Shown: positions 36,734 to 56,908 of the stretch, piece by piece
Layout: every line of letters starts with the position of its first letter
Position numbering within the stretch: position 1 is the first letter of the stretch
Assembly (NCBI GenBank): GCA_905206805.1
Contig: CAJLIR010000006.1
Coordinates: 2,999-66,998 of the forward strand
Origin: an uncultured Bacillales bacterium
Lineage (GTDB): Bacteria > Bacillota_I > Bacilli_A > RF39 > UBA660
DNA length: 64,000 bases
Direction of reading: 5' to 3'
Notes under the pieces: model-generated
The model's database searches: none
What the model saw: only the letters and a program-made list of their open reading frames with translations
Told to the model about the DNA's origin: nothing
Position numbers and translations under genes: made by a program

Positions 36734-36750
36734 ATTTGTTAAATAGAAAA

Positions 36751-36778
36751 GCACTAAAATTTTATTAGTGTTTTTTTT
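36751..36778 (+). terminator. rho-independent terminator after the 3101-aa gene
   Basis: GCACTAA-aatttta-TTAGTG(T) hairpin followed by T8. Confidence 0.6.
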
Positions 36779-36800
36779 GTCGATTTTTGTAATATTTCGG

Positions 36801-36829
36801 TTTACAAATAATATACATTTTGTTATAAT
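36801..36829 (+). promoter_or_regulatory. putative promoter of the 1851-aa gene operon (TTTACA, 17 nt, TATAAT with TGT extension)
   Basis: TTTACA at 36801-36806, 17-nt spacer, TATAAT at 36824-36829 preceded by TGT; GGGAGAG RBS before 36871. Confidence 0.4.
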
Positions 36830-36870
36830 ATAATTATAATAAGTAAAGTATAGTTAGAAGTTGGGAGAGC

Positions 36871-39800
36871 TTGAAAATGAAATTAGTAAAAAAAAATAAT
36901 TTTTTTCTGTTATTTATTATAATGTTATTTTCTTTTGGATTTAATGTTATATCTGTAAATGCAGAAGGTGAACATCAATTTTCATTAAAGGTTTATGATT
37001 GGAATGCTTTTGATAATGATTGGGAAGGTTCTGGTACGGGAGAAGAAATTTCTAATAATGGTACTATAGAACCTGGTAAAGTATATAAATTATCTATTTA
37101 TTATATTCCAGGAACAATTACAGAAGTAGGTATGCAAATGGGGATTAAGTATAATAATCTTTTAATTGAACCGATGTATGCAGATGGTGAATTGTATACA
37201 GAAACTGATATGTCAACAACATACCAAGGTGGTATATGGCCTGCATCAGGTACAACACCATCCGCAAAAAAGAAAACAAATTGGCAAGTATTGTCAAATG
37301 ATGCAAGTGATGAAAGTATGTTTACATTTATGGCTACGGATACAACAACTTCAAATGCTCTTGAAACAGAAGGAGAAATTGCAAGTGTGTATTTTAAAGT
37401 AAAAGATACAGTGACATCAGGAACAAATATAATTTTTGAATATGATGATGAATATACAGCACTTAATAACGATAGACCTAAAGTAACATCAGGAATAAAT
37501 TTAACAGTTCAAACAGCTTTAAGTTCTAATTCGGCACTTCATACATTAAGTGTCACAAATAGCGAAACAACTTATAATTTAACCCCAACTTTTACAGCAG
37601 ATGATAATACAATTAAAGAATATAGTACAGTTGTACCTTCATCAGTAACAAGTGTTGATTTAAGTGCAACAGCAACAGATTCTAATGCCAGCGTGTTAAG
37701 TGGCGGATTGGGTATAAAAGAATTAAATATTGGAAATAATGATTTTAATATAGTTGTAACCGCTGGGGATGGTTCAATTACTACTTATAAGGTGTCAGTT
37801 TATAGATTAAATGATGATGCTACATTAAAATCATTAGATTTAACAAATAATGTTAATATTGGAGAATTTAATAGTGCAACTACTGAATATGAGGCAAGCG
37901 TACCATACGCAACTAAAAATACAGTTGTAAGTGCAACAACAACAGATCAAAATGCAAGTATTAAATCTGGAACTGGAAGTTTTGAATTTACTAATTGTGG
38001 TACTACTCCTAATACTAAGGAAATAATAGTAAATGCTGAAAACTGTAAGGAAGAATATGCAAGTGTTCCAAATAATGCTTGTACTACAAAAACATATACA
38101 GTAACAGTAAATAGAGAAAATCCTTCTAATAATAATTATTTAAGTAATTTAAAAGTAAATGGACAAACAGTAACTGATTTTAATAAAGAAAAATTAGAAT
38201 ATACATTGGATGATGTAAAAGGTGATGTTTCAAGTATAGAAGTTTCAGCTACAGCCGAAGATACAAAAGCAAGTGTAGTAGGAACTGAAAATAAATCACT
38301 AAGTATTGGTGATAATAGTATAGAAGTAGTTGTAACAGCAGAAGATGGATCAACTAAAATTTATACAATAAAAGTTAAGAAGTTATCAAATGATATAGCA
38401 CTTAAATCATTAACTGTAACAAGTAACCCTATGGGAACATTAACTCCAAGTTTTGCAAGTACAACTTATGCTTATACATATAATTATGATGCAACAGTAA
38501 CAAGTTTAAATGTTACAGCAACAACAAATAATACAAATGCAAAAGTAGGAATTATTGATAGTGATTCAAGTGATATTATGACAAGTACAATCGGAAGTGC
38601 AGCAAAAACATTTAATTCATCTACAAAAAATGTAAAAGTAACGGTAACAGCTGAAGATGGTACAACAAAAGATTATACAATTGTTTTATCAAGAGATAAA
38701 TCAACAGATGCAACATTAGATAGTTTAACAGTAAGTGAAGGAACATTAACTCCAACATTTAATAAAAATACATTAAATTATACAGTAAATGTTGATAATG
38801 ATGTTACCAGCATTGATGTAAATGCAACATCAACAGATTCAAATGCTACAGTAACTGGTACAGGAACTAAACAATTAAATACAGGAAATAATTTAATTAA
38901 TATTGTAGTTAAAAGTGAATCTGGAACCGAAAACACTTATACAATAAATGTAATAAGAGCAAAGAGTTCTAATAATTACTTAAGTGATTTAAAAGTAAAT
39001 GGGCAAACAGTAACTGATTTTAATAAAGAAAAATTAGAATATACATTGGATGATGTAAAAGGTGATGTTTCAAGTATAGAAGTTTCAGCTACAGCCGAAG
39101 ATACAAAAGCAAGTGTAGTAGGAACTGAAAATAAATCACTAAGTATTGGTGATAATAGTATAGAAGTAGTTGTAACAGCAGAAGATGGATCAACTAAAAT
39201 TTATACAATAAAAGTTAAGAAGTTATCAAATGATATAGCACTTAAATCATTAACTGTAACAAGTAACCCTATGGGAACATTAACTCCAAGTTTTGCAAGT
39301 ACAACTTATGCTTATACATATAATTATGATGCAACAGTAACAAGTTTAAATGTTACAGCAACAACAAATAATACAAATGCAAAAGTAGGAATTATTGATA
39401 GTGATTCAAGTGATATTATGACAAGTACAATCGGAAGTGCAGCAAAAACATTTAATTCATCTACAAAAAATGTAAAAGTAACGGTAACAGCTGAAGATGG
39501 TACAACAAAAGACTATACAATCGTTTTATCAAGAGCTTTATCAAATAATAGTTATTTAAAAGATATAAGTATTGATGGAACTAATATTGATGGATTTAAT
39601 AAAGAAAATTTTGAATATAATATAAAAGTTTCAAGAGAAACAGATAGTATTAATATATCTGCAATTTTAGATGATGAAAAGGCAACTTTAACTACAGATT
39701 TATCTAATAAATTTAGTTTAAATCTAGGAACTAATAAAATAAATATTGTAGTAACGGCAGAAAATGGTGATACAAGCACTTATGTATTAAATATTGAAAG

Positions 39801-42426: not shown

Positions 42427-42435
42427 GAGGCAATT

Positions 42436-44550
42436 ATGAAAAAATTTAAAAATTTAAACTTGTTTATAGTATCTGGCTTTATATTTCTATTTTCTATCTT
42501 TTTTATAACTCCAGTATATGCTTTAGGAAGTGCTACAGTAGGTTTTAGTGGCAATTCTACTGTTAGTGTAGGTAGTAATATAACAGTACAATTATATGTA
42601 TCAAATGTTAATGATGCAAATGGTGGTGTTGCAAGTTTTGAAGGAAATCTTTCTTTTGATTCTGATTATTTGGAATATGTATCAGGATCTGGTGCAACAA
42701 CTCCTTATTTGTTTCAAATAAATACAGCTGCAAATTATAAAATTGCAGCTCTTGATACATCTTTAAGTAATGGCATTAAAAGTAGTAGTTCGACTAACGT
42801 TTTTACCTTTGTATTTAAAGCAAAAAAAGAAGGCTCAACAACTGTTAGTATTACAAATTTAAAATTGACTAATAGCAGTGAGAGAATGACTGGTAATGTT
42901 AGCCCAAAAACAATTACGATAAATACTCCTGCACCAGTTACAAAATCAAGTGATGCAACACTTAAAAGTTTATCAGCAACAGGCTATACATTAAGTCCTG
43001 AATTTAATAAAGATATTACATCTTATAAGATTAAAGTTCCAGCAACTGCTACAACAGTTAGTTTACAAGGAAGTGCTAATCATAGTAAGGCAACAGTATC
43101 AGGACTTGGTAATATAAATTTAACTGGTGATACAACTGTTGCAACAATAAAAGTAACAGCCGAAGATGGAACGGTAAAAAATTATACAGTAACAATTGAA
43201 AAAGAAAAAACTACTCCTGTTACAAAGAGTAATGATGCAACACTTAAAAGTTTGGATGTTAGTGGATTTACTTTAAATCCAACTTTTAAAAGTAATGTAA
43301 ATACTTATTCTATTAGGGTTAATAATAATATAACTGGTTTAAAAGTTACTGCTATTGCTAATAGTGATAAAGCTAGTGTTTCTATATCTGGAAATAGTGA
43401 TTGGGAAGAAGGAAACAATATAATTACAATAAAAGTAACAGCAGAAGATGGAACAGTTAATAATTATATTGTTAATGTTAATAGAGCTTCACTAAATACA
43501 ACAAAAGCTATAAATAAATCGAGTGACAATTATTTAAAGAGTTTAATCATTCAATCATCACACGAAATGAAACCTATTTTTGATAAGAATTTAACTAATT
43601 ATAATATTACAGTACCTTATGAGGTTAGCAAACTTGATTTAACTGCTACTAGTAATGACTCTAAAGCAAAAGTTGAAATAATAGGTAATAGTAGTTTTAG
43701 TGTTGAAAAAGTAAATCTTGTTGAAGTTAAAGTAACTGCTGAGGATGGAAGTATTCGTATTTATTCTTTAAACGTTACTCGTAGTACAACTTCTAGTAAA
43801 ACTGATTTAAAAGATTTAGTAATAGATAATGTTAATTTAAGTCCAAAATTTGATTCAAATATTTTAGATTATACTGCTAATGTTGATGCTAAAACTGATA
43901 AATTAAATATTAGATATACAACTAGTAATAGTGATAGTAAAGTCGAAATAATTGGTAATGATAATTTAAAAGAAGGAAATAATACTGTTTTAATAAAAGT
44001 AACTGATAAGGAAGGCTTTACTAAGTATTATTCGATAAATGTTGTAAAAGAAAAATCAGGTAGTACTATTTTAGGTCTTAAACCACTTCATTTTGTACTT
44101 CTATTCTTTATAATACTTCTTTTAATTGCGATAATTATTATTTTATTAATAAAAAGAAAAAAAGATGAGAACAAAAAATTGGAAGAAAAGAAGTTAATGC
44201 AAACGCAACCAATAATTGAAGTAAAACCAGAATTTAATTTTAATTCAAAGAATTCTTCTGATGATGATGTTGTACACGGAAATATGAGTCAAAATAGTGG
44301 TACTATAGGGACAAATCCAGAAAAGAAACAAATTTTTGATGCTAGTTATGAAAATAAAATTCCTTATGACCCTTATGATGAAACAGTTACTAAACAAGAA
44401 TTAATTGATGCAATTCACGAAGCATCAGAAAAAAAGGATGTGTCTAAACTTCAAATGTTGTTGAGGCAAGAAGAGTTAAATAAGATGAAAAAAGAATTAA
44501 AGGAAAAAGAGGATTTAGAACAAAAAGAGGAAGATGAAAAATGGTGGTAA
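42436..44550 (+). CDS. membrane-anchored cohesin protein (704 aa): signal peptide, cohesin domain, 4 cadherin-like domains, TM helix, charged cytoplasmic tail of about 130 aa
   Basis: N-terminal SATVGFSGNSTVSVGSNITVQLYVSNVNDANGGVASFEGNLSFDSDYLEYVSGSG...VFTFVFKAKKEGSTTVSITNLKLTN matches the cohesin fold pattern. TM LHFVLLFFIILLLIAIIIILLI followed by a KRKK stop-transfer. RBS TAGGAGG 10 nt after the upstream gene's stop. Confidence 0.8.
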   Translation: MKKFKNLNLFIVSGFIFLFSIFFITPVYALGSATVGFSGNSTVSVGSNITVQLYVSNVNDANGGVASFEGNLSFDSDYLEYVSGSGATTPYLFQINTAANYKIAALDTSLSNGIKSSSSTNVFTFVFKAKKEGSTTVSITNLKLTNSSERMTGNVSPKTITINTPAPVTKSSDATLKSLSATGYTLSPEFNKDITSYKIKVPATATTVSLQGSANHSKATVSGLGNINLTGDTTVATIKVTAEDGTVKNYTVTIEKEKTTPVTKSNDATLKSLDVSGFTLNPTFKSNVNTYSIRVNNNITGLKVTAIANSDKASVSISGNSDWEEGNNIITIKVTAEDGTVNNYIVNVNRASLNTTKAINKSSDNYLKSLIIQSSHEMKPIFDKNLTNYNITVPYEVSKLDLTATSNDSKAKVEIIGNSSFSVEKVNLVEVKVTAEDGSIRIYSLNVTRSTTSSKTDLKDLVIDNVNLSPKFDSNILDYTANVDAKTDKLNIRYTTSNSDSKVEIIGNDNLKEGNNTVLIKVTDKEGFTKYYSINVVKEKSGSTILGLKPLHFVLLFFIILLLIAIIIILLIKRKKDENKKLEEKKLMQTQPIIEVKPEFNFNSKNSSDDDVVHGNMSQNSGTIGTNPEKKQIFDASYENKIPYDPYDETVTKQELIDAIHEASEKKDVSKLQMLLRQEELNKMKKELKEKEDLEQKEEDEKWW

Positions 44551-46241
44551 AAAATATATTAAATAAGAATATTAAATTATTTCTATTTTCTATTCTTTCT
44601 TTTTGTTTTCTTTTATTTCCATTTATAGCTAAAGCTGATGGAAGTGTGTCATCTGGCTTTAGTGGAAATGATAGTGTTTATGTCGGAAATACTATTGATG
44701 TAACTCTTTATGTAAATGAAAGTGGTAGTGCTTCAGGTATTATGGCAATACAAGGAAGTTTGTCGTATGATAGTAGTAAATTAACGCTTTTAAATTCAGT
44801 TTCATTAGCGCCATATCAAATTCAAATAAATGGTAATAGTATTGCCGGGATGGATACTAGTGGTTCCAGAACAATCAGAGGTTATTCAAATATAATGAAA
44901 TTTACATTTAAAGCAAATTCACTAGGAAGTGCTACAGTAAGTTTTAATGGAGCTAAATATATTGATGGCAACAATTCTTATATTAACGGTGGTGGATGTA
45001 GTAGAACAATAAATATTGTAAATCCTCCTAGTTCAAATAATAATTTAAGTAGTTTGACAGTTAGTAGTGGAAATATCAATTTTGATAAAAATAATACTAA
45101 CTATAATATAAGTGTTGATTCAAATGTAACAAGTATAAATATTGGTGCAACTGCAGAAGATGGGGGAGCTAGTGTATCAGGAACTGGAACTAAAAATTTA
45201 GGATACGGTAATAATTCTTTTGGTATTACTGTAACAGCTCCAAGTGGTGCTACAAAAACATATACAGTAAATGTTAATCGTAAAGATGATAGAAGTAGTA
45301 ATAATAAACTTTCTAGTTTAAGTGTAAATGATGGTGAAATTAATCCTAGTTTTAATGCAGATAATGAGTCTTATGATGTATCAGTTCCATTTAGTGTAGA
45401 TAATTTAAGAATAAATGCTAAAGCACAAGATGGTAAATCAAGAATTGATATTTCTGATACTTCTTTAATTGCTGAGGAAACAAAGGATATATATATAACG
45501 GTAACAGCAGAAAATGGAGCTAAAAAAATCTATACAATTCATGCTACCCGTGGTAAAGATCCGAATAAAGTTCTTTCAACGAATAATTTTTTAGAAAGTT
45601 TAACTGTAAGTTCAGGTGTACTTAGTCCAATTTTTAATAAAGAACAGGATAAATATATCATTTATCTTCCTTATGAAGTTGATTCAATTGATATAACAGG
45701 TATTGTAGAGGATAAAAGGTATGCAACTATAAAAAAAGATGGACCAGAAAAATTAAGTGTTGGAAATAATACTTATACTTTATCTGTAACATCAGAAGAT
45801 AACTCAGTTAGAACATATACAATAATTGTATCAAGAGGAATAAGTATGACTGAGGAAACATTGAGTTCTAATATTTATTTAAAAAGTATTAAATTAAAAA
45901 AAGGTTCATTAAAAGAATCATTTGACAAAGAAATATTTGATTATACTTATACTGGTAGTGAAGTAGAAGCAATTCCTGAAGATGAAAATAGTACGGTGAC
46001 GGTTATAAATCGTAATAATAAAATAATTATTATGGTAAAATCTCCTTCAGGAAGTATTGGTATTTATACATTAACTCCATATAAGTCAAATTTAATTAAT
46101 ATTATTATTTATATAATTTTATCTTTAACAAATATAGTAGGTGGAGTAGGATTTTATATAATATATAAAAAAAATAAAAAGAACAATTCTAAAGTAAAAA
46201 AACAAGATAAAGAGAGAATAACAGTAGATAATAAAAACTAG
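44541..46241 (+). CDS. membrane-anchored cohesin protein (566 aa): signal peptide, cohesin domain, about 4 cadherin-like domains, C-terminal TM anchor
   Basis: SVSSGFSGNDSVYVGNTIDVTLYVNESGSASGIMAIQGSLSYDSSKLTLLNSVS...IMKFTFKANSLGSATVSFNG matches the cohesin pattern. C-terminal TM IIIYIILSLTNIVGGVGFYIIY followed by KKNKKNN. Overlaps the upstream gene by 10 nt (operon). Confidence 0.8.
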   Translation: MVVKNILNKNIKLFLFSILSFCFLLFPFIAKADGSVSSGFSGNDSVYVGNTIDVTLYVNESGSASGIMAIQGSLSYDSSKLTLLNSVSLAPYQIQINGNSIAGMDTSGSRTIRGYSNIMKFTFKANSLGSATVSFNGAKYIDGNNSYINGGGCSRTINIVNPPSSNNNLSSLTVSSGNINFDKNNTNYNISVDSNVTSINIGATAEDGGASVSGTGTKNLGYGNNSFGITVTAPSGATKTYTVNVNRKDDRSSNNKLSSLSVNDGEINPSFNADNESYDVSVPFSVDNLRINAKAQDGKSRIDISDTSLIAEETKDIYITVTAENGAKKIYTIHATRGKDPNKVLSTNNFLESLTVSSGVLSPIFNKEQDKYIIYLPYEVDSIDITGIVEDKRYATIKKDGPEKLSVGNNTYTLSVTSEDNSVRTYTIIVSRGISMTEETLSSNIYLKSIKLKKGSLKESFDKEIFDYTYTGSEVEAIPEDENSTVTVINRNNKIIIMVKSPSGSIGIYTLTPYKSNLINIIIYIILSLTNIVGGVGFYIIYKKNKKNNSKVKKQDKERITVDNKN

Positions 46242-46332: not shown

Positions 46333-46779
46333 ATGGGTAGTGTTTTGAAAAAATTAGATAAAAAGGTTTATATTTTAATATTTGCTATTATTTTAATATT
46401 GGTTATTGCCTTTTTTATAATAAAAAATATTAATAGAAAAGAAATAAGTGAAGAAGAAAGATTATCAAATTTATTAATAAAAATGAGTAGTGAATTTTAT
46501 GAAAATTTTTATTATGATCAAATAGGCAGTACAGAAGAAGATAGAATTAATTTTGTAAAAAAATACGAAACTATTGGTATAAAGTTTAATCTTGATAATT
46601 TATCAAGATATAATTTTGATGAAAATAATGAATTAATTAAAGAGTTTATTAATTCAAATACTAATCTAGAATGTAATAGAGTTAATACAAAAGCAATTAT
46701 TTATCCAGTAGAACCATATTCAAAGAAATCATATAATATAAAAATAGAATTAGATTGTAGTCTTGATAATAATAAATAA
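46333..46779 (+). CDS. small secreted / membrane-anchored protein; paralogue of 26933-27355
   Basis: N-terminal TM; conserved core SEFYENFYYD...KYETIGIKFNLDNLSRY...TKAIIYP...C...C. Confidence 0.55.
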   Translation: MGSVLKKLDKKVYILIFAIILILVIAFFIIKNINRKEISEEERLSNLLIKMSSEFYENFYYDQIGSTEEDRINFVKKYETIGIKFNLDNLSRYNFDENNELIKEFINSNTNLECNRVNTKAIIYPVEPYSKKSYNIKIELDCSLDNNK

Positions 46780-46845
46780 TTATAATTTTTGACAAATATA
46801 TTCATATATATACAAATTTTTCATAATTTTTAATAGAGGTGGATT

Positions 46846-47268
46846 ATGAAAAAAATATTATGTATTATATTATGCTTTTGTATGTTTTTACCATTTTCAA
46901 TAAAGGCTGATGAAGTTGATTTAGCACCTAATGCAGGAAGTGCAGTTTTAATGGAATTTGAAACAGGTGAAATAATTTTTGAAAAAAATTCTCACGAGAA
47001 ATTGCACCCAGCATCAATGACAAAAATTATGTCTATGTTAATAATTATGGAACATATTGATAAAGGTTTAATTGGTTGGGATGATGTAGTAACAGCAAGT
47101 GAGAATGCATCTGGTATGGGAGGCTCACAAATTTTACTTGAAACTGGCGAAAAAATGAAAGTTAGTGATTTATTTAAGGGAATTGCGGTTGCAAGCGGAA
47201 ATGATGTGGTGGTAGCCAAAAAGCAGTCGCTAGTTATAGGAGAAGAAATAATAATAGAACAACATTAA
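46846..47268 (+). pseudogene. truncated 5' duplicate of the D-Ala-D-Ala carboxypeptidase gene (first about 116 codons), ending in unrelated junction sequence
   Basis: 46795-47196 is about 99% identical to 48978-49388 (promoter, RBS and 5' coding region of the gene at 49028). It diverges after GIAVASGND into a short tail that recurs at 57473-57545. Confidence 0.65.
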
Positions 47269-47343: not shown

Positions 47344-48069
47344 ATGTCAGTGTTTAAGATTGAAAAGACAAAAGATTATACCGTTATGTCAAATTATCAT
47401 TTAAGAGATAAAAATTTAAGTTATAAAGCAAAAGGTTTATTGTCGTTTATGTTATCATTACCAGATGACTGGGATTATTCTTTAAATGGTTTATGTTCGA
47501 TTAGCAAAGAAAGTAGGGATGGAATAAGATCCATACTTAGAGAGTTGCAAGAACATCATTATGTAGAAATAGAAAAAGTAAGAGGAGATAAAGGATATTT
47601 TGAATATAACTATTTAATATATGAAATGCCACATTGGATTTGTTTGGAAAATGAGAAAAATAATCCAGATATGGAAATTCCACACCTGGATATTCCAAAT
47701 GTGGAAAATACTACACAAATAAATACTAATAAACAAATAGAAAAAGATGATAAAACAAAAATATCATCTTTTTTTGTTGCAGAAGAACACAATCTATTAA
47801 CATTGGAGTTAATAGATAGAGGTTACTTAACTGAAAATGATATGCAAATTTTTTATTATGATAATTTATTTGAACAATTATTAAAGGGAGAAAATTCATA
47901 TAAAGACTTAATTCAAATAATACACTATATAGTTCCAAGAGTGATTAATCGAAATTTTAAAGATGAAGATGGGAATGTTATTGTTAATAAATTTGGATAT
48001 TTCAAAAATGCTATTATAGATAATATAAATAAGTTAAATAAAAGAAATGAAAGCTTATGGGAATTATAA
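47344..48069 (+). CDS. RepA_N-like replication initiator / replisome-organizer protein of plasmid or phage origin
   Basis: N-terminal region YTVMSNYHLRDKNLSYKAKGLLSFMLSLPDDWDYSLNGLCSISKESRDGIRSILRELQEHHYVEIEKVRGDKGYFEYNYLIYEMP matches the Firmicutes RepA_N winged-helix pattern. Confidence 0.55.
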   Translation: MSVFKIEKTKDYTVMSNYHLRDKNLSYKAKGLLSFMLSLPDDWDYSLNGLCSISKESRDGIRSILRELQEHHYVEIEKVRGDKGYFEYNYLIYEMPHWICLENEKNNPDMEIPHLDIPNVENTTQINTNKQIEKDDKTKISSFFVAEEHNLLTLELIDRGYLTENDMQIFYYDNLFEQLLKGENSYKDLIQIIHYIVPRVINRNFKDEDGNVIVNKFGYFKNAIIDNINKLNKRNESLWEL

Positions 48070-48152
48070 ACTTAAAGCAAATTTAGAAAAAGTTTATTAT
48101 AAATTCATATTATATATGATATAATTATATTGAATTGTTATGGAGGATATAA

Positions 48153-48929
48153 ATGAAAAAAATTATTTTTGCAGTATGTTGTTTAATTATTTTTATCATT
48201 TTAATTTTAAAAAATGTTTCATTTGGAATAACTGATTTTATTGACAAAAAAAATGACTTAATTATAAAAATTCCTAAAACATATATAAATAAAATTGAGA
48301 ATAAAGAAGGTGTAATTGTACTTAAAACAATTAAGAGTAAAAGAATTTTGAAGAATGATATGGATAAAATTATTGAAAGTTTAGAAAAAAAGATGTGTAA
48401 TCAAAAAGATGTATATTATGATATAGCAAACAATATAAAAATAACTGGTTATGAAATTAAGTCAAAAAATTTAATCAATTATTTGTATATTAATTATTCT
48501 AAAGAAGATTATGATGCATATAACTGTCAGAAAATAACATATCCAGAATTAATAAAGTATGTAGTACGTTCTCAGGCAAATAATCAATGCGTATTAGTTA
48601 ATGGATATAAGTATAAAAATGAAGATGGAAATTTATATAATGTTTATCTTGATTGTATTGGTAGTATTTTAATACAAAATGGTGCAGGTTATATGACTCA
48701 TTTACAATCTTTACTTTATTCTAATTTAATTGATATGAATGATATTTTAAATTTTTTTGAATATCAGTTTGAGATAAATAATGGTACTAAAGAAACAATA
48801 GATAATAATGGTACCGTTTTATATAAAACAAATTATTTTTCATTACTTAAATGTAATACACTTGATGGTAATAAGGATATATATATGGGTAATGAAAATT
48901 TTGTTTATAAAAGTGATTATTGTAAATAG
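48153..48929 (+). CDS. hypothetical secreted protein (258 aa)
   Basis: N-terminal signal/anchor; no recognisable domain. Confidence 0.45.
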   Translation: MKKIIFAVCCLIIFIILILKNVSFGITDFIDKKNDLIIKIPKTYINKIENKEGVIVLKTIKSKRILKNDMDKIIESLEKKMCNQKDVYYDIANNIKITGYEIKSKNLINYLYINYSKEDYDAYNCQKITYPELIKYVVRSQANNQCVLVNGYKYKNEDGNLYNVYLDCIGSILIQNGAGYMTHLQSLLYSNLIDMNDILNFFEYQFEINNGTKETIDNNGTVLYKTNYFSLLKCNTLDGNKDIYMGNENFVYKSDYCK

Positions 48930-49027
48930 TTTTATATTAATGTATCAGATGAAATAAAAAATTCTATAAATTTACAAATATATTCATATATATACAATTT
49001 TTTCATAATTTTTAATAGAGGTGGATT

Positions 49028-50182
49028 ATGAAAAAAATATTATGTATTATATTATGCTTTTGTATGTTTTTACCATTTTCAATAAAGGCTGATGAAGTTG
49101 ATTTAGCACCTAATGCAGGAAGTGCAGTTTTAATGGAATTTGAAACAGGTGAAATAATTTTTGAAAAAAATTCTCACGAGAAATTGCACCCAGCATCAAT
49201 GACAAAAATTATGTCTATGTTAATAATTATGGAACATATTGATAAAGGTTTAATTGGTTGGGATGATGTAGTAACAGCAAGTGAGAATGCATCTGGTATG
49301 GGAGGCTCACAAATTTTACTTGAAACTGGCGAAAAAATGAAAGTTAGTGATTTATTTAAGGGAATTGCGGTTGCAAGCGGAAATGACGCTGTTGTAGCGA
49401 TGTCGGAGTATATAGCAGGTACTGAAGAAGCATTTGTTAAAATGATGAATGAAAAAGTTAAAGAACTAGGTTTAAACGATACAAACTTTAAAAATGTACA
49501 CGGATTAGATGATGCTAATCACTATTCGAGTGCTTATGATATGGCTATGATGGCTAGAGAATTAATAAAACATAAAACTGTTTTAAAATATACATCTATT
49601 TATGAAGATTATTTAAGAAAAGGAACTGATAAAGAATTTTGGCTTGTTAATACAAATAAATTAGTAAGATTTTATGATGGAGCGGATGGACTTAAAACAG
49701 GATATACAAAAGAGGCTGGATATTGTCTTACTGCAACAGCAACAAAAAATAATATGCGACTTATTGCAGTAGCAATGAATGAACCAGATAGTAAAACAAG
49801 AAATGCAGAAGTAACATCTATGCTCGATTATGGATTTGCTCAATATTCAACAGAAACTTTATTATCTACTGAAAGTGTTTTAGATAAAGCTTTAGTTGAT
49901 AAAGGCAAAAAAGAATATGTAGAAATAATACCAACAGAAAATATTACTTTCTTAAATAAAAAAACAGAAGAAAAAAAGAATGCCTCATACGAAATTAAGT
50001 TAAATAAATTATCTGCACCATTAAAAAAAGGTGATGTAGTAGGGACATTAATTGTAAAATTTGATGATAATAATCAAAAGTGTGTAGATATAACAATAAA
50101 AGAAGATGTAGACAAATGCAATATTTTTGAATTATTTATTAGATATTTATGTGATGTATTAAGTGGGAATATAAAATTCTAA
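49028..50182 (+). CDS. dacF: serine-type D-alanyl-D-alanine carboxypeptidase (peptidase S11, PBP5/DacF-like)
   Basis: Signal peptide; SMTKIM (SxxK) active-site motif, SGN motif, KTG motif (LKTGYT); 384 aa. The dacF assignment rests on the spore-former context and is tentative. Confidence 0.85.
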   Translation: MKKILCIILCFCMFLPFSIKADEVDLAPNAGSAVLMEFETGEIIFEKNSHEKLHPASMTKIMSMLIIMEHIDKGLIGWDDVVTASENASGMGGSQILLETGEKMKVSDLFKGIAVASGNDAVVAMSEYIAGTEEAFVKMMNEKVKELGLNDTNFKNVHGLDDANHYSSAYDMAMMARELIKHKTVLKYTSIYEDYLRKGTDKEFWLVNTNKLVRFYDGADGLKTGYTKEAGYCLTATATKNNMRLIAVAMNEPDSKTRNAEVTSMLDYGFAQYSTETLLSTESVLDKALVDKGKKEYVEIIPTENITFLNKKTEEKKNASYEIKLNKLSAPLKKGDVVGTLIVKFDDNNQKCVDITIKEDVDKCNIFELFIRYLCDVLSGNIKF

Positions 50183-50212: not shown

Positions 50213-50288
50213 TATTAAAATTTTATAAATTTCACCCAATAGTTAATTCTATTTTATAAATGCATAATATAAGATAGGAGGGTAAAAT

Positions 50289-51416
50289 ATGTATAATAAT
50301 TGTAACTGTAATGATGATTATGAAAGAATAAAAAAACGTATAGATGAGGAAAGCAAAAAATATAAACAATGTTATATACAAGGTCCACCTGGACCAAAAG
50401 GAGAACAGGGAATTAAAGGAGATCCAGGTCCAGCTACTATCAGAGTAGGTAGTACAGAAACTGTAGAATCTAGTGAACCCGCTTTAGTAATAAATACTGG
50501 TACGAAAGAAGACGTAATTTTAGATTTTAAAATACCAAAAGGTGATAAAGGAGATAAAGGAGAACAAGGTATTCAAGGAATGCAGGGACCAAAAGGAGAA
50601 CAGGGGGATAAAGGTGATATTGGTTTAAAAGGTGATAAGGGTGAAAAGGGAGAACCAGGACCAACTACTATCAGAGTAGGTAGTACGGAAACAGTGGAAT
50701 CTGGTGAATCCGCTTTAGTAATAAATGCTGGTACAAAAGATGACATAATTTTAAATTTTAAAATACCAAAAGGTGATAAAGGAGATAAGGGAGATTCAGG
50801 TCCTAGAGGACTTCCTGGAGAAATAGGCAGAACTGAACATATAGCAATAGACGAAACTGAAACTCTTGAACCAGGTGAACCTGCTCAAGTTATGGATACT
50901 TTTGAAAATTGGGTTCATCACTTATCATTTCTTATACCAAAAGGAGAAAAAGGTGATTTAGGTCCTGTAGGACCTCAGGGACCTACGGGGCAATCATTTG
51001 TATCTTCGTATGGAATTAGATATTCAATGACTGATACTCAGCTCAATTTACCACAGGCAACTGATACTGTAATTCCTTTACCAGAAAAGGGCATTTCATT
51101 TTTTACAGAGTATCCTGATGATAATTCAATCAAGATAAAAGAAAGTGGAGTTTATTTGGTATCATATTTATTATGTGCTGCAACTAATGAAGAATGTTCT
51201 ATAACAATGTCGGTTAGAGCAAATGATATACTTCAACCTGCAACAAGTGCTACTAGTGAGTTTCAAGCACAGTTGATAAATAATATAAGTGGGTCAACAA
51301 TTATATCATTACAAACAAATGATCTTATAACACTGAATGTAAAATCTTCTAAGAATGTTAACATGAAGTTTAATGGTAGTACTAATGCAATGTTGAGTAT
51401 TATTAAAATTCATTAA
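50289..51416 (+). CDS. BclA-like collagen-repeat exosporium/surface glycoprotein (interrupted Gly-X-Y triple-helix region plus C-terminal TNF/C1q-like domain)
   Basis: Cys-rich N-terminus (NCNCNDDYERIKKRIDEESKKYKQCYIQ). Multiple GxxGxx runs (GPPGPKGEQGIKGDPGP) interrupted by repeated roughly 45-aa non-collagen modules (TIRVGSTETVESxEPALVINxGTKxDxILxFKIPKGDKGDKG). C-terminal roughly 130 aa follows the BclA C-domain pattern (ESGVYLVSY...NAMLSIIKI). Confidence 0.75.
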   Translation: MYNNCNCNDDYERIKKRIDEESKKYKQCYIQGPPGPKGEQGIKGDPGPATIRVGSTETVESSEPALVINTGTKEDVILDFKIPKGDKGDKGEQGIQGMQGPKGEQGDKGDIGLKGDKGEKGEPGPTTIRVGSTETVESGESALVINAGTKDDIILNFKIPKGDKGDKGDSGPRGLPGEIGRTEHIAIDETETLEPGEPAQVMDTFENWVHHLSFLIPKGEKGDLGPVGPQGPTGQSFVSSYGIRYSMTDTQLNLPQATDTVIPLPEKGISFFTEYPDDNSIKIKESGVYLVSYLLCAATNEECSITMSVRANDILQPATSATSEFQAQLINNISGSTIISLQTNDLITLNVKSSKNVNMKFNGSTNAMLSIIKIH

Positions 51417-51516
51417 TAAATTTTAATCAAGTAATTGTTACTTGATTTTTTTTGTTATATATTAATTAAGTCCTTTTTTATGTATTTAATATATTATAAT
51501 AAAGGAAAGTGAAAAT

Positions 51517-53376
51517 ATGAAAATAATAGATAATAAAACAGTAGTTGTAACCAATAGTGAAGAATTAAAAACTGCTTTAAGTGGAGATAATGAATATGTT
51601 TATATTTATTTTGGTAATGATATAACACTTGAAAGTGGTTTTGTAATTAATTCTAATAAAGAAAAAGTAATTATAGATGGAACATACCAAAATCATAAAT
51701 ATACATATTATAATTATTTATCAGAAAATAATGATGTTATAATAGCAAATTCTGATAATAAAGTAATAACAGTAAAAAATTTAGTTATAAAATCTTCACA
51801 TACTCTAGGTGTTATTTATGTTTCTGATAATGAAATTTATGAAAATGTTAAAGTTGTATATAGTAATATTCAATTTAATGGTATAAAGTTATCAAATAAT
51901 TTATATGGTACTACTAAGATTTTAGACAGTAGCATAACTATAGAAGATATAAATAATATCAAAGCTCAAAGTGTATGTGATTGCAATAAAATTGAAATAG
52001 GTGGTCAGACTACTTTTGATACTCCTAACACTGCCTTTTTATATCAACATACTATAGAACCATCTAAGTTTACTATACTTACAAATAGTAAGGTAAATTT
52101 AAATACATTGAATGCTTTTTTCAATGGTACACCAAGATTAGATTTTAAAATATTACATAATTCGGAATTTAATTTGACTACTGGTAATGGATTTGCACAA
52201 ACAATTAATAATGGTTGCAAAAACGTTTTAATAGATGAATATTCTACATTTAATTTTATTGAAAATAATCATCAAAGAATACCAATGTGGAATGTATATG
52301 GTGATTTTATTGTTAATAATTATGCTAGTTTATTCATAATAAATAGTTTTGATTCTACTCCTGCAGATAATTATAATATATATTTTAAGGGTACTAATCA
52401 AAATTTAGTTTTAAATAATCCTAAGAGTATCATTATTTATACAAAAAATGCAAATATTCTATATACTGAAAATCCAGTAAATTTTTCATTTGAATTCAAT
52501 AGATTAAATATGTGGATTAATTCTAAGAATATTACAACAGCTGGTAGTATTGATAATTTACCTGATTATTCTTGGTATAAAGTTGATACACTATCACAAG
52601 TTAAAGGTGTATTTTATAAAACTACAACAACAATAACAGAAACAAATTATACTGAACAAGAAAAAAATAAATTACCTGATTTATCTAATTTTATCTTTCA
52701 AAATAGAAAACAATTTTCAATTGGAATGATAAAAAATAATATTCATCCAATTGACAGTAATTCTACTAAAATATCAGGACATACAATGCCACATACTGAT
52801 GTTTTAATCTCTTATGATAGTATATATGAAATAGTAACTTCGGATGTTGATGGATTATTTGAATATATTTTGTTAGACGATATTCAGGATGGAACTAATA
52901 TAACAATTGTTTTTTGTAAACCAACAAGTTTTGTTTATGATACTAGGTTAATTGTAACACCATTTGAAGGAGAAATTACACTTTTAAATTCAACTGAAGT
53001 AGTGACATTTGATAAAATTCCAATATCAACTAATCCTATTATTTTAGGAAAGAAAAAAAATACTACAATTACAGTTATTGATAGTAGAAAAAATGGTACG
53101 GAATTTAATTTATATCTTAATTATGTAAATCCTATGATGACAATAGATGGAAAAGTATTAATTGATTCTTTAATATTTAAAAAATTTGATGACGAAATAA
53201 TTACGTTAAGAAATGAACCTAAATTAATTTATCAAGGAAAAAAAACAAATAATCAAGTAAACATAGAAAATATTACATTTTCAACTGATAAAGGTTTATT
53301 ATTAAGATTAGACGATGATAAGTATAATTTAAAAGATGAATTTGTAACTAAATTTATATGGACAATAGAATTATAA
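51517..53376 (+). CDS. hypothetical Asn-rich protein, possibly a right-handed beta-helix fold
   Basis: 619 aa; N-terminal TVVVTNSEELKTAL...YIYFGNDITL...IIDGT, then many short V.I.N-type beta-strand repeats; weak assignment. Confidence 0.4.
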   Translation: MKIIDNKTVVVTNSEELKTALSGDNEYVYIYFGNDITLESGFVINSNKEKVIIDGTYQNHKYTYYNYLSENNDVIIANSDNKVITVKNLVIKSSHTLGVIYVSDNEIYENVKVVYSNIQFNGIKLSNNLYGTTKILDSSITIEDINNIKAQSVCDCNKIEIGGQTTFDTPNTAFLYQHTIEPSKFTILTNSKVNLNTLNAFFNGTPRLDFKILHNSEFNLTTGNGFAQTINNGCKNVLIDEYSTFNFIENNHQRIPMWNVYGDFIVNNYASLFIINSFDSTPADNYNIYFKGTNQNLVLNNPKSIIIYTKNANILYTENPVNFSFEFNRLNMWINSKNITTAGSIDNLPDYSWYKVDTLSQVKGVFYKTTTTITETNYTEQEKNKLPDLSNFIFQNRKQFSIGMIKNNIHPIDSNSTKISGHTMPHTDVLISYDSIYEIVTSDVDGLFEYILLDDIQDGTNITIVFCKPTSFVYDTRLIVTPFEGEITLLNSTEVVTFDKIPISTNPIILGKKKNTTITVIDSRKNGTEFNLYLNYVNPMMTIDGKVLIDSLIFKKFDDEIITLRNEPKLIYQGKKTNNQVNIENITFSTDKGLLLRLDDDKYNLKDEFVTKFIWTIEL

Positions 53377-53439
53377 AAACTGCATATATTTTTAATATAT
53401 TAAATTTATACATATAAATATATCATAATGAGGTGATTT

Positions 53440-53787
53440 ATGGATAAAGATTATATTTATGTGAAATTAATGTCTAGTAACAATGTTTGTATTAATAAAA
53501 TACAGTTTGTATTAAAAGATGTTTATAATAATATAGTTTTTAATGGAATAACTGATAATTATGGAGGTATTGAATTACCTATAAATAATAAAAATATTTA
53601 TAAATTATTAATATATTCTGGAGTTGGATTAATTCAAATACCAATATATGCTTTAAAAAATGCAAGATATTGTATATGTATTAATGAAGAAAAAAATAAT
53701 AAGAAGAAAAATAATAAAATGTTATTATTTGATTCTAATTATCCAGAAATTAAAATAAAGAAAGGAGAGATAATTTTATGGCAATAA
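53440..53787 (+). CDS. hypothetical protein (115 aa)
   Basis: ORF with a GAGGTG RBS; no recognisable domain. Confidence 0.35.
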   Translation: MDKDYIYVKLMSSNNVCINKIQFVLKDVYNNIVFNGITDNYGGIELPINNKNIYKLLIYSGVGLIQIPIYALKNARYCICINEEKNNKKKNNKMLLFDSNYPEIKIKKGEIILWQ

Positions 53788-54329
53788 AACATAGAATTCC
53801 AATAACTAATGGACTTGGAAGTTTAGAGGTTGTTAATGGACGATATAATGTAACGGCTGAAGTACCTGGATATGACAATTCAACTTTAACTCCTAAAAGC
53901 ATAGAAATAGTAGATGGTGTTGAAACGTATGCTTTTACAATTTCTGCTACTGGAACTCTTACAATTAATGTAACAGATACAGGAAGTTCAACTACTGGTG
54001 TACAAATAGTTGGAGCTAAATTTGTAAGAACTGATTATCAAGGAAATGAAATAGGTGTTGAAGCTATAACTGATTCAGATGGTAATGCGAAATTTTTGAA
54101 TGTGCCATTTTCTGCAAATAATAGTTTAAAAATATATTTTAAGCAAGTAACTAGTGATGGGAAACATACGTTTAGTGAAGAAGTGAGAAATATAGAAATG
54201 AAAATGAATGAAGAAACTATTGAAATCGCAAATCCATTAGCTCCACTTAAAAAATTTACATTATCAGATTCAAATTTTGTAAATATACTTATTGATGATG
54301 GCGATTTATATATTGAAGAAAACGGTTAG
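53778..54329 (+). CDS. hypothetical beta-rich protein (183 aa)
   Basis: Overlaps the upstream ORF by 10 nt (coupled); Thr/Gly/Val-rich Ig-like composition. Confidence 0.4.
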   Translation: MAIKHRIPITNGLGSLEVVNGRYNVTAEVPGYDNSTLTPKSIEIVDGVETYAFTISATGTLTINVTDTGSSTTGVQIVGAKFVRTDYQGNEIGVEAITDSDGNAKFLNVPFSANNSLKIYFKQVTSDGKHTFSEEVRNIEMKMNEETIEIANPLAPLKKFTLSDSNFVNILIDDGDLYIEENG

Positions 54330-54415
54330 AAAAAACCTAATTTAATAAATTTTTATGAATAAAAAAATTATATATATTTTATTGTTATATAAATTTAATT
54401 AGGAAGGAGAATGTT

Positions 54416-55525
54416 ATGAATAATAATTCCTGTAATTGTAATTATAATGATAATTATGAGAAAATAAAAAAACGAATAGAAGAAGAAAGTAAAAAATATA
54501 AAATGTGTTATATACAAGGACCGACTGGTCCTAGAGGTGATATTGGACCAACTGGACCAAAAGGAGAAGATGGTCCAACAACAATTGAAGTTGGTACAAC
54601 AGAAACAGGTGAACCTAATACTGAGGCTATCGTAAAAAATGTTGGCACAAATAAAAATGTTATTTTAAATTTTGTAATACCTAAAGGAGTTACTGGTGAT
54701 AATGGTGATAAAATTATTATTGGCAAAACGGAAACATTAGATGCTAATGCTAAAGCAAAAGTTATTGATACTTTAGTTGGAAATGTTCATACACTAGATT
54801 TTTATATACCACAAGGGTTTGATGGTATAAATGGCGCTGTAGGTCCTAAAGGAGAAACTGGGAAAAGTGAAGGGATTAAAGTTATTAATACAAAAACAAT
54901 TTCCCCAGGCACAGAAGCAGAAGTTACTGATGATTTTGATGGTGATACACATTATTTGACATTTTCTATTCCAAAAGGAGAAAAAGGTGAACAAGGAGTT
55001 GCTGGTGAAAGGGGAGAAAGAGGAATAGCAGGCCCAGTTGGACCAGCCGGTTTGCAGGGAGAAGTAGGTCCAACAGGTCCAATGGGTCCAGCAGGGACTT
55101 CTTCACTTGATGCATTTGCATTTCTTTATGAAGATAATGGAAATTCTTATTCTTTAACACCAAATACACCAAATCAAATTGATTTAGGTCAAACTTCTCA
55201 AATTAAAAATGTTGATACAACTTTTACAAATACAATTAAAATACAAAATACAGGAGTATATAAAATTGATTATTTTTTTGAGGCCAAAGCTTCTGCTAAT
55301 GCAAATGTATCATTAGAAGTTAGAAAAGAAAATATCACAGTAAATGGTACAAAAATAACAAAAGAAGTAAATAATCAAAATTATGTTAGTTTTACTGGAA
55401 GTATAATTACAGTGTTAAATAAAAATGATAAAATTGATTTAGCATTATCATCGACAGTAAGTGTTACATTAACTCCAAATGATGATACTAGTTCTTACCT
55501 AAGTGTTATAAAGATAGATAATTAA
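54416..55525 (+). CDS. BclA-like collagen-repeat protein, paralogue of 50289-51416
   Basis: Same Cys-rich N-terminus ([51 protein letters not shown]); interrupted Gly-X-Y runs with non-collagen inserts; [22 protein letters not shown] block; C-terminal beta-rich domain. Confidence 0.75.
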
Positions 55526-55668: not shown

Positions 55669-55726
55669 GTTAAATGTTAAATTTTACTATATATAATTTT
55701 TAGTGTATAATTATATTGGTGATAGT

Positions 55727-56908
55727 ATGGAAAAGTATCTTGAAGATTTGAATTATTTAATTAAAATGTTAGAATGTAATCATTTAGATATTTATTTTAA
55801 TGTATCTAAATCTGATTTGAATAATTATATTAATTATATAAAAGAAAATATTTTAATTAATAATGATTATCAATTTATGTATATTATAAAAAAAGTTATT
55901 AAAAAATTAAGTGGAATATATGACTCTCATACTAGGGCTATGTTTCAAAATAATAAATTATTACCAATAAAAATCAAAGTAATTAAAGATAAGGTATATA
56001 TAATAAAAACATTAGATGAATATAAAAATATTTGTTATAGTGAAATTACTCATATTAATGGAATAAGTATGAATAACCTAATTAGTGAATTGGAAGAAAC
56101 AATTTCTTATTCTACTAGGGAATGGTTAATAAAAAATATTCAGGATGATTTAATTAAAATTAATAGTTTAAAGATGTTACCAAGTATTGGTGATGCTTAT
56201 TCTATTGATTTGACAATCAAAAAAAATAATAATATTAATAGTATTAAATTCGATTGTAATAAAGATTATCAAAAAATAACAAATGATGATAAAAACTATA
56301 CATTTGAAATAATAGATGATGTTTTAAAAATAAATTATACAAGTTGTATTGAAAAGAAAAAAAATCAAATGTTAGATTTTATTAATGATATAAATACGAA
56401 TGTAAATAATAGAATTATTAATGATGTTGTTGTTGATTTACGTGGTAATGTGGGTGGTAATGATACTATAATAAAACCCTTACTTGAATATTTAAAAAAT
56501 AATTTTACTAATATTTATTTGTTACAAGATGGTGGTATATTTTCTGGTGGCAGATTTGCTTTGTTTGATTTAAAAAATATTGGAAGTTGTACAATAGGCA
56601 CAAATATAGGAACTCAGGCAAATTGTTTTGGAAATTTAAAAAAGTTTAATGATAAAAGTTATTTTGAACTTCCAAATACAAAATTTAAAATTACTTGTTC
56701 AACTAAATTTTATTATTTAGATAATGGTTTAATAAAGTTTACTTCTGATAAAAAAGAACTATCGATTTTAAAGAGAAATAAAAAAATTTTAGAACCAATA
56801 TATTTTGAACCTGATTATTATGTAGAAGAGGATATAAATGATTATGAACAGGGTATTGATTCGTATATGGAACAGTTTAAAGAAATAAAAAATTTAAAAA
56901 TTAAATAA
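55727..56908 (+). CDS. hypothetical protein with a possible S41 (C-terminal processing peptidase)-like domain
   Basis: VVVDLRGNVGGN resembles the S41 DLRxNxGG motif; weak, single-motif assignment; start chosen at the ATG at 55727 after GGTGATAG. Confidence 0.4.
   Translation: MEKYLEDLNYLIKMLECNHLDIYFNVSKSDLNNYINYIKENILINNDYQFMYIIKKVIKKLSGIYDSHTRAMFQNNKLLPIKIKVIKDKVYIIKTLDEYKNICYSEITHINGISMNNLISELEETISYSTREWLIKNIQDDLIKINSLKMLPSIGDAYSIDLTIKKNNNINSIKFDCNKDYQKITNDDKNYTFEIIDDVLKINYTSCIEKKKNQMLDFINDINTNVNNRIINDVVVDLRGNVGGNDTIIKPLLEYLKNNFTNIYLLQDGGIFSGGRFALFDLKNIGSCTIGTNIGTQANCFGNLKKFNDKSYFELPNTKFKITCSTKFYYLDNGLIKFTSDKKELSILKRNKKILEPIYFEPDYYVEEDINDYEQGIDSYMEQFKEIKNLKIK

Follow-up and report, generated by a model that had tools for sequence, protein, structure and literature searches.

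The contig CAJLIR010000006.1 of an uncultured Bacillales bacterium of the RF39 lineage (assembly GCA_905206805.1) was analysed over a stretch of 64,000 nucleotides (nt), referred to here as the window. It harbors two genes encoding collagen-like proteins, colA and colB, with three further genes, p619, p115, and p183, positioned between them. All five open reading frames (ORFs) outlined in the original prediction were recovered by an ORF check, on the forward strand and at the positions first assigned to them. The features of the locus, in window coordinates, are as follows:

~50263-50271 (within 50255-50280), forward strand: putative mother-cell promoter -10 box of colA, CATAATATA, fitting CATAnnnTA, identified by reading the sequence
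50289-51416, forward strand: colA, 375 amino acids (aa), BclA-like fibre protein
ColA residues 1-31: Cys-bearing helical N-terminus
ColA residues 32-49, 85-126, 162-182, and 219-236: Gly-X-Y runs
ColA residues 50-84, 127-161, and 183-218: beta modules
ColA residues 237-375: BclA_C/C1q jelly-roll
51424-51452, forward strand: intrinsic terminator 3′ of colA, a 10-bp stem followed by U8
51517-53376, forward strand: p619, 619 aa, leaderless, a beta-helix (approximately residues 1-375) followed by two Ig-like beta-sandwich domains
53440-53787, forward strand: p115, 115 aa, presumed from its sequence to be a small beta protein, ending in the motif L.D..YP.I.I..G.IILW
53778-54329, forward strand: p183, 183 aa, apparent prealbumin-like (SpaA/CarboxypepD_reg-type) beta-sandwich
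53705-53784 (in p115) and 54240-54320 (in p183), forward strand: shared C-terminal motif, located by hhalign
54416-55525, forward strand: colB, 369 aa, a colA paralogue that shares its N-terminus and likewise has three modules and a BclA_C-type head

The putative -10 box CATAATATA lies 9 nt 5′ of the AGGAGG ribosome-binding site of colA. The AT-rich hairpin 3′ of colA was overlooked by the built-in terminator scan and was confirmed by RNA folding (-9.9 kcal/mol, z -4.4), with none of 200 shuffled sequences equalling it; an equivalent hairpin with a T-run is present 3′ of the gene in colA orthologues. The start of p183 overlaps the stop of p115 by 10 nt. No hairpin was found between p183 and colB, and the region upstream of colB contained neither a hairpin nor a CATA box; hence, colB is probably co-transcribed with p115-p183.

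Both collagen-like proteins matched the Pfam Collagen family (PF01391) above its cut-off, with E-values of 1e-13 for ColA and 5e-10 for ColB. For BclA_C (PF18573), the cut-off of which is 38 bits, ColA scored above it (43.7 bits) and ColB slightly under it (36.4 bits). Each protein is composed of four Gly-X-Y runs of 3-14 triplets and three non-collagen segments of 34-36 aa. The alternating collagen/beta stalk proposed in the original prediction therefore stands as an architecture, with the correction that its figure of about 45 aa for the segments counts the first flanking triplets. The Cys-bearing N-terminus shared by ColA and ColB also proved to be real: the motif C(N)C..YE(R/K)IKKRI(D/E)EESKKYK.CYIQ directly precedes the first Gly-X-Y run in both, and variants of it start most orthologues and many paralogues in related genomes. 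In the AlphaFold2 (AF2) model of the ColA monomer, residues 8-24 of this segment were predicted to form a helix. The stalk was modelled poorly, with a predicted local distance difference test score (pLDDT) of 30-65, as is expected for a trimeric fibre, and the C-terminal domain was modelled confidently as all-beta (pLDDT 80-92). A Foldseek search of the PDB with this domain returned BclA of Bacillus anthracis (2r6q, 1wck) as the top match (template modelling score, TM, 0.79; E ~5e-9), followed by BxpB/ExsFA, F-BclA (9h38, the tip protein of the F-ENA spore fibres), C1q, and the TNF ligands. The predicted BclA-type C-terminal jelly-roll was thus borne out by the BclA_C family match together with the fold match to BclA; a head that did not model as a TNF/C1q-like jelly-roll had been named as grounds for giving up the claim, and the ColA head does model as one.

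The six modules of ColA and ColB could be aligned without gaps, with I5, T10, T12, A19, V21, L32, F34, I36, P37, and G39 invariant. Each module of the ColA monomer was modelled by AF2 as a three-stranded beta meander (pLDDT 55-65), and this fold is assigned tentatively from the model. Searches of the PDB with two profiles of the module gave chance-level matches only, and no solved structure was found by sequence. A protein homology search with a 42-aa module profile yielded nothing but fragments of 45-76 aa, which do not bear on the architecture of full-length proteins. Module 3 is the most conserved part of ColA, with a median identity of 93% compared with 57-63% for modules 1-2, and for this reason it is a candidate site at which a partner protein could dock.

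A tblastn search of 50,697 phage records with ColA showed that tail-fibre proteins align to its residues 30-250. The phage unit, of 36-37 aa with the pattern ATIxVGTVTTGxPGSxAxVxNxGTxxxAxLxFxIPxG, alternates with Gly-X-Y runs in the tail fibres, there being nine copies in 'tail fiber protein 1' of Eggerthella phage LE2-3 and five in the tail fibre of Stenotrophomonas phage DLP_6. A hidden Markov model (HMM) built from 13 phage modules only, without Gly-X-Y sequence, scored 62.5 bits against ColA and 52.1 bits against ColB at the module coordinates, and at most 6.8 bits against 1000 shuffled sequences. When the same phage records were searched with a two-module phage segment, only LE2-3 and DLP_6 were found, so the module is rare among isolated phages. 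A scan of IMG/VR identified relatives of the stalk on 78 viral contigs, 72 of which bear 1-11 modules; neither the N-terminus of ColA nor a BclA_C-like head was present in any of these viral stalk proteins. The interruptions of the triple helix, described as unusual in the original prediction, are not so, as the same module alternates with Gly-X-Y runs in the LE2-3 and DLP_6 tail fibres and on the 72 IMG/VR contigs. The likeness to the two phage fibres thus extends to the same 36-37-aa module, to its alternation with short Gly-X-Y runs, and to significant homology. The phage fibres differ in being long (up to ~1800 aa and up to 11 modules), in their large N-terminal attachment domains, in having other C-terminal domains, none of them BclA_C, in lacking the ColA N-terminus, and in being encoded among virion genes. 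A beaded design is also known from the Escherichia coli prophage protein EPclB, in which two collagen domains are parted by a Pf2 repeat and which appears in electron micrographs as beads connected by flexible stalks (PMC3368898). This likeness is by analogy, the Pf2 repeat (PF03406) being a different module. By its domain and family matches, ColA is a chimera in which a stalk of the phage-fibre type is combined with a BclA-type head and an N-terminus specific to the clade.

No match to p619 was found in Pfam, NCBIfam, or PHROG, and in the Pfam scan it fell below the threshold of PF20585 (Pectate_lyase_5). Its AF2 model was all-beta with high confidence (pLDDT 92; predicted TM score 0.90) and consisted of a right-handed parallel beta-helix with Ig-like domains. 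The closest structural relative was the binding region of the serine-rich-repeat protein (SRRP) adhesin of Lactobacillus reuteri (PDB 5nxk), a gut adhesin that binds polysaccharide and mucus. The likeness to SRRP is one of fold only, and glycan binding by p619 is putative. SRRP and the Pectate_lyase_5 surface proteins of WxL loci are secreted and wall-anchored, whereas p619 has neither a signal peptide nor an anchor, carries two extra Ig-like domains, and shares its locus with a BclA-like gene. Relatives of p619 were absent from the 2.9 million contigs of IMG/VR, and the predicted viral structures of BFVD gave weak generic beta-helix matches only (TM at most 0.29). The family is small, comprising 370 clusters among 1.84 billion representatives.

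The p183 family showed weak matches to prealbumin folds (SpaA in 22 of 27 members, CarboxypepD_reg in 10 of 27), p115 had no family match, and neither of the two matched PHROG. The two small proteins share a 27-residue C-terminal motif, L.D..(Y/F)PNI.I..G.iiL (hhalign E 1.6e-5, probability 79%), and are otherwise unrelated in sequence. The motif could be a shared docking or strand-donation element. Homology of p115 and p183 to DUF11/CLIPPER proteins was considered and rejected (hhalign probability <1%). The suggestion that the three middle genes include glycosylation partners did not hold, as none of them resembles a glycosyltransferase: p619 has a beta-helix adhesin/lyase fold with Ig-like domains, and p183 has the prealbumin-like matches. 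It was also observed that in five distant loci (L089, L090, L092, L093, and L094) leaderless beta-helix relatives of p619 of ~630 aa (Pectate_lyase_5) recur beside a small protein of 127-133 aa, which matches DUF11/CLIPPER in three of the loci and is unannotated in two; in L092 the relative also has a collagen-like protein as its partner. Sigma-K-type boxes are present at most of them. These pairings point to a more widespread spore-surface gene pair that has gone unannotated in other Firmicutes.

Many contigs from human-gut metagenomes encode identical copies of the ColA/ColB-locus proteins. When genomes were scanned with an alignment of p619, 80 loci were obtained from species-level genomes, which are labelled as uncultured Bacilli, Tenericutes, or Mollicutes, Clostridium sp. 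CAG:302, CAG:417, or CAG:433, Mycoplasma sp. CAG:611, and Acholeplasma sp. CAG:878. Apart from CAG-302, the labelled genomes are taken by us to be RF39 by GTDB. CAG-302 has been placed in the order RF39 (PMC7676259). The gene order colA-p619-p115-p183 was held in ~75 of the 80 loci, at a protein identity of ~40-75%. Clustering of the flanking ORFs revealed no other conserved family, the next commonest occurring in only 16 of the 80 loci, and the frequent flanking genes were housekeeping ones (SecA, RF-2, FtsY, ABC transporters, and YitT). No phage structural gene was conserved within 10 kb across the 80 loci, and a search of plasmids and phages with the locus DNA gave no match. The conserved four-gene order between unconserved flanks indicates an autonomous chromosomal cassette rather than a prophage module. 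The synteny supports the earlier view that the genes belong together. Bracketing by two collagen genes, taken in the original prediction as the defining layout, is a local feature: a colB gene 3′ of p183 is restricted to this species and those most closely related to it (L007-L013), and other genomes have extra col paralogues elsewhere. The true unit is colA-p619-p115-p183, and ColB is a lineage-specific extra paralogue.

Signal peptides, hydrophobic N-termini, and transmembrane segments are lacking in all five locus proteins. Their best N-terminal 12-aa hydropathy was at most 0.9, as against 3.3-3.8 for two secreted or membrane controls from the same window, and Pfam and NCBIfam searches of the five detected no anchor of the LPXTG, WxL, SLH, or choline-binding type. 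Surface-type folds without an export signal are expected in virions or in the outer endospore layers, the construction of which takes place in the cytoplasm of the mother cell.

Alignment of the regions 5′ of colA among orthologues revealed a conserved TATACA-N16-CATAAATTA (spacer N15-N16), in which the AC and CATA..TA positions were 97-100% invariant. In the orthologues CATAAATTA is also found directly 5′ of the p619 ribosome-binding site, downstream of the hairpin and T-run that end colA, and TTTACA-N17-CATAAAATA is found 5′ of p115. CATAnnnTA was present within 150 nt upstream of 71% of col, 73% of p619, and 68% of p115 genes compared with 9% of the 1027 remaining genes of these loci, an enrichment of 7-8 fold (Fisher P 1e-30 to 1e-47, values that overstate independence as the species are related). 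The consensus reported for sigma-K is [a/c]AC[a/c]-N16-CATA-N3-TA (PMC5749712). The colA motif fits this consensus with a one-base spacing tolerance; AC-N16/17-CATAnnnTA was found for the colA and p115 orthologues, and the p619 orthologues have the -10 box part of it. Sigma-E, the -10 box of which is similar to that of sigma-K, may be the factor instead, and both act in the mother cell. A scan with the sigma-70 consensus was uninformative in this AT-rich DNA (70 sites vs 64 expected).

Upstream of leaderless relatives of p619 (26-29% identity) and of the divergent DUF11/CLIPPER genes next to them, the full box was likewise present in 7 of 10 regions, at loci of 38-53% GC where the chance expectation is ~0.056 per region (binomial P 2e-7), and it recurred in genomes of 50-53% GC. 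A p619 relative that has a signal peptide and lies in a WxL cell-surface operon was without such a box. DUF11 proteins are known as components of spores and appendages (PMC5749712). The other genes bearing the full sigma-K-like motif in the RF39 loci encode pentapeptide-repeat, GT2 plus tetratricopeptide repeat (TPR)-like, and VanY-like proteins, none being a textbook sporulation gene. An additional element, TATTGTAATGAGG, lies directly downstream of the -10 box and is conserved 5′ of p115 across RF39 (e.g., L017, ~11880-11910). It resembles TATTGTCATGAG and TAATGTCATGAG, which are found 5′ of small DUF11/CLIPPER genes in distant lineages of 50% GC (L094, ~530-600; L092, ~2640-2700). The element may represent a leader, or a site for a regulator, that has been conserved.

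It is probable, though well short of certain, that the cassette encodes a late-sporulation, mother-cell-expressed surface nap or appendage of the spore, related to BclA and equipped with an adhesin, in gut Bacilli of the order RF39. The RF39 order has been predicted to be spore-forming from its gene content (PMC10868615), and the spore-surface function proposed originally is supported by that prediction, by the lack of signal peptides, and by the conserved sigma-K-type boxes. The kinship to BclA, the conservation of the cassette, the recurrence of the box beside leaderless p619 relatives of other lineages, and the lack of phage relatives of p619 also speak for it. As the five leaderless proteins carry no secretion signals, they would be synthesized in the mother-cell cytoplasm and assembled straight onto the forespore, in the manner of BclA in Bacillus and Clostridioides. 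ColA, and ColB in this species, would form trimeric BclA-type filaments, the chains of which could be trimerised by the Cys-flanked N-terminal helix, with the cysteines possibly serving as a disulfide staple or as an anchor to the spore surface. The stalk would consist of short collagen triple helices alternating with the 36-aa three-stranded beta modules. These modules, presumably inherited from or shared with phage tail fibres, are probably trimeric knots that re-register and stiffen the fibre. At its distal end, the model and the family match would place a TNF/C1q-like BclA_C trimer. Judging from its fold, p619 may be a glycan-binding, possibly glycan-cutting, surface component, and p115 and p183 could be adaptor or anchor subunits. 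The likely role of the whole would be adhesion of spores to mucus, dietary glycans, or other spores, and hence host-to-host transmission.

Several observations weigh against a spore-surface function. To our knowledge, sporulation of RF39 has been predicted only and never observed, and no RF39 isolate exists. The prediction itself describes a mix of sporulating and non-sporulating species (PMC10868615). The assignment to sigma-K is a consensus match in AT-rich DNA and is to be read as putative. In the window species the boxes are degenerate, CATAATATA of colA having no AC at -35, and a clean box was not found 5′ of p619 or p115. Among the full-motif genes of the loci, no RF39 sporulation gene was found that could have acted as a positive control for the promoter. 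Pfam scans of the rest of the window, in which the original prediction had counted on spore-related genes, revealed no sporulation-specific family. They identified RNase J, FtsY, Ffh, FeoB, VanY, PrsW, ABC transporters, and Cadherin-like giant proteins, and the sole spore-gene candidate was the adjacent PBP5/S11 D-Ala-D-Ala carboxypeptidase, which is not sporulation-specific. The Bacillus exosporium leader TIGR03720, which docks to ExsFA/BxpB and defines a Bacillus subgroup only, had no match in the NCBIfam search at E<0.1. Many PHROG tail-fibre families match ColA and ColB, and these matches, the stalk module, and the beta-helix fold would be equally typical of phage receptor-binding proteins.

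The last point leads to the strongest of the alternatives, in which the locus is a domesticated or remnant phage receptor-binding module used by a prophage, a tailocin, or a gene-transfer-agent-like particle that has its main structural genes at another place in the genome. ColA and ColB would then be tail fibres, p619 a tailspike-like protein, and p115 and p183 fibre adaptors or chaperones. The homology of the stalk module to tail-fibre modules, the collagen-plus-module proteins on 72 IMG/VR contigs, and the PHROG matches are all in line with this, virion proteins are likewise devoid of signal peptides, and a gene resembling a phage-type replication initiator lies 2 kb upstream of the cassette. 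That Rep-like insert is, however, missing from other species, and capsid, portal, tape-measure, sheath, baseplate, holin, or lysin genes were conserved within 10 kb in none of the 80 loci, the flanks of which are housekeeping in nature and differ between species. The ColA N-terminus and the BclA_C head occur on no viral stalk protein, and p619 has neither an IMG/VR relative nor a close viral fold match. The N-terminus of 31 aa is far below the usual length of a baseplate-attachment domain, and the promoters match the sigma-K type and not any phage late pattern. We consider this alternative unlikely.

A vegetative cell-surface adhesin fibre, comparable to Scl1/2, Lcl, or the proteins of WxL loci, which would leave the cell by non-classical export or lysis and bind mucus or plant polysaccharide, is quite improbable. 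Weak NCBIfam matches to the collagen adhesins Lcl and SclA/B were obtained, but these reached 48-59 bits against cut-offs of 325-500 and arose from the Gly-X-Y repeats alone. SRRP, to which p619 is structurally closest, is a cell-wall-anchored adhesin, a WxL cell-surface operon contains a distant relative of p619 that bears a signal peptide, and giant surface proteins are abundant in the neighbourhood of the locus. Against this, all five proteins are without a signal peptide and without an LPXTG, WxL, SLH, or choline-binding anchor, and sigma-K-type boxes accompany the leaderless p619 relatives consistently and are lacking at the secreted one. That the genes are merely co-located and functionally unrelated, with boxes that are a by-product of AT-rich intergenic DNA, accords with the ~25% GC of the genome, the chance-level sigma-70-like matches, and the imperfect boxes of the window species, but is very improbable given a four-gene order kept in ~75 of 80 species at ~40-75% protein identity amid scrambled flanks, a box enriched 7-8 times over the background of the same genomes, and its recurrence at 50-53% GC.

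Among known spore-surface systems, the cassette, read as a spore-surface structure, most resembles, by analogy, the BclA nap and the appendage locus of Clostridium taeniosporum. With BclA/BclB of the exosporium nap of the B. cereus group and BclA1-3 of C. difficile, it shares a short N-terminal segment, a collagen-like stalk, and a trimeric TNF/C1q-like BclA_C head, as well as the lack of a signal peptide and, putatively, assembly in the mother cell. BclA is expressed late, in a sigma-K-type manner, and the same may apply to the RF39 cassette. In contrast to BclA, the RF39 stalk consists of four short runs and 36-aa beta modules instead of one continuous triple helix, the N-terminus is a Cys-flanked charged helix in place of the exosporium leader of Bacillus, neither an anchor gene of the BxpB/ExsFA type nor a glycosylation operon adjoins the locus, and the accompanying genes encode one beta-helix protein and two presumed small beta proteins.

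The appendage locus of C. taeniosporum encodes P29a/P29b, GP85, CL2, and CRD1/2 and has several sigma-K-type promoters (PMC5749712). Its collagen-like pair GP85/CL2 has an identical N-terminus, comparable to that of ColA and ColB, and is accompanied by beta-sandwich partners (PMC5749712). These partners are DUF11 proteins, whereas p115 and p183 have no detectable DUF11/CLIPPER homology; moreover, a beta-helix protein is not reported there, and the collagen is not described as module-interrupted (PMC5749712). The F-ENA (endospore appendage) system comprises DUF4183 subunits with N-terminal hook peptides, as well as F-Anchor and F-BclA, both of which are collagen-like (PMC12357932). The C1q-headed F-BclA is encoded beside the spore-fibre subunits and decorates the spore surface (PMC12357932), in likeness to what is suggested here for ColA. 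Membership of the cassette in the F-ENA system was rejected, as DUF4183 had no match at E<0.1 in the five locus proteins, nor in the 27 members of the p183 family. What is new in the RF39 cassette is a BclA-type fibre with a phage-type interrupted stalk and an order-wide set of partners.

A more specific proposal, that the four genes form an undescribed RF39 spore-surface organelle in which the phage-derived, beaded ColA and the adaptors p115 and p183, through their shared docking motif, display p619, is tentative, and we hold it to be rather doubtful in this form. If it were true, a phage receptor-binding stalk would have been exapted into a spore adhesion device, and leaderless p619-type proteins with sigma-K boxes would be the sign of a broader class of adhesins, so far unrecognised, in the spore coat or exosporium.

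RF39 are common, uncultured, genome-reduced bacteria of the human gut. An order-wide cassette with mother-cell-type promoters and leaderless surface-type proteins offers concrete, testable spore markers for them, and ColA and p619 could serve as antigens or as proteomics targets in ethanol-resistant stool fractions. The cassette also supplies candidate determinants of spore adhesion and host-to-host transmission, and the leaderless beta-helix family is flagged as a likely spore-surface component in several lineages of Firmicutes. The joining of a stalk module otherwise found in phage tail fibres to a BclA-type head widens the design range of bacterial collagens, and short triple helices re-registered by small, putatively trimeric beta knots may be of interest to collagen engineers.

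Several other features were observed around the cassette. The 5′ end of the PBP5/S11 gene is duplicated over at least 300 nt at 97% identity (46771-47070 and 48953-49252), leaving a truncated copy of 140 aa (46846-47268) and a full gene (49028-50182). The 2.2-kb insert between the copies (47344-48929) encodes an HTH_36/phage replication-initiator-like protein and a membrane protein of 258 aa; it resembles the trace left by a small integrated element, and the same arrangement is present in contigs L001-L004. Further upstream, four consecutive giant surface-type proteins of 3101, 1851, 704, and 566 aa (27428-46241) carry Cadherin-like beta-sandwich repeats. The first also contains three ALK/LTK glycine-rich domains, Big_2, and a dockerin, and the third contains a cohesin. 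These domain matches suggest that this genome-reduced gut bacterium carries a surface complex assembled through cohesin-dockerin pairing. Fragments of a Mutator-family transposase lie on the reverse strand at 21252-21707 and 21998-22204; the ORF of 151 aa matches only the C-terminal third of the Pfam model and thus represents a decayed insertion sequence. Downstream of colB, a gene of 401 aa with a weak Peptidase_S41-like match (55703-56908) is present in the window and in contig L007 of a Hadza metagenome-assembled genome. It is missing from the near-identical contigs L001-L003, where colB directly precedes a MazG-like gene, and is an insertion/deletion polymorphism within the species.

In two other species, a gene of ~365 aa divergent from colA (L040, 6737-7828, and L055, 6961-8058, both on the reverse strand) has its own AC-N17-CATAGAATA box. 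In C. difficile, sgtA adjoins bclA3. By eye, the product of the divergent gene appears to combine a GT2-type glycosyltransferase with TPR-like repeats, and it may glycosylate the fibre.

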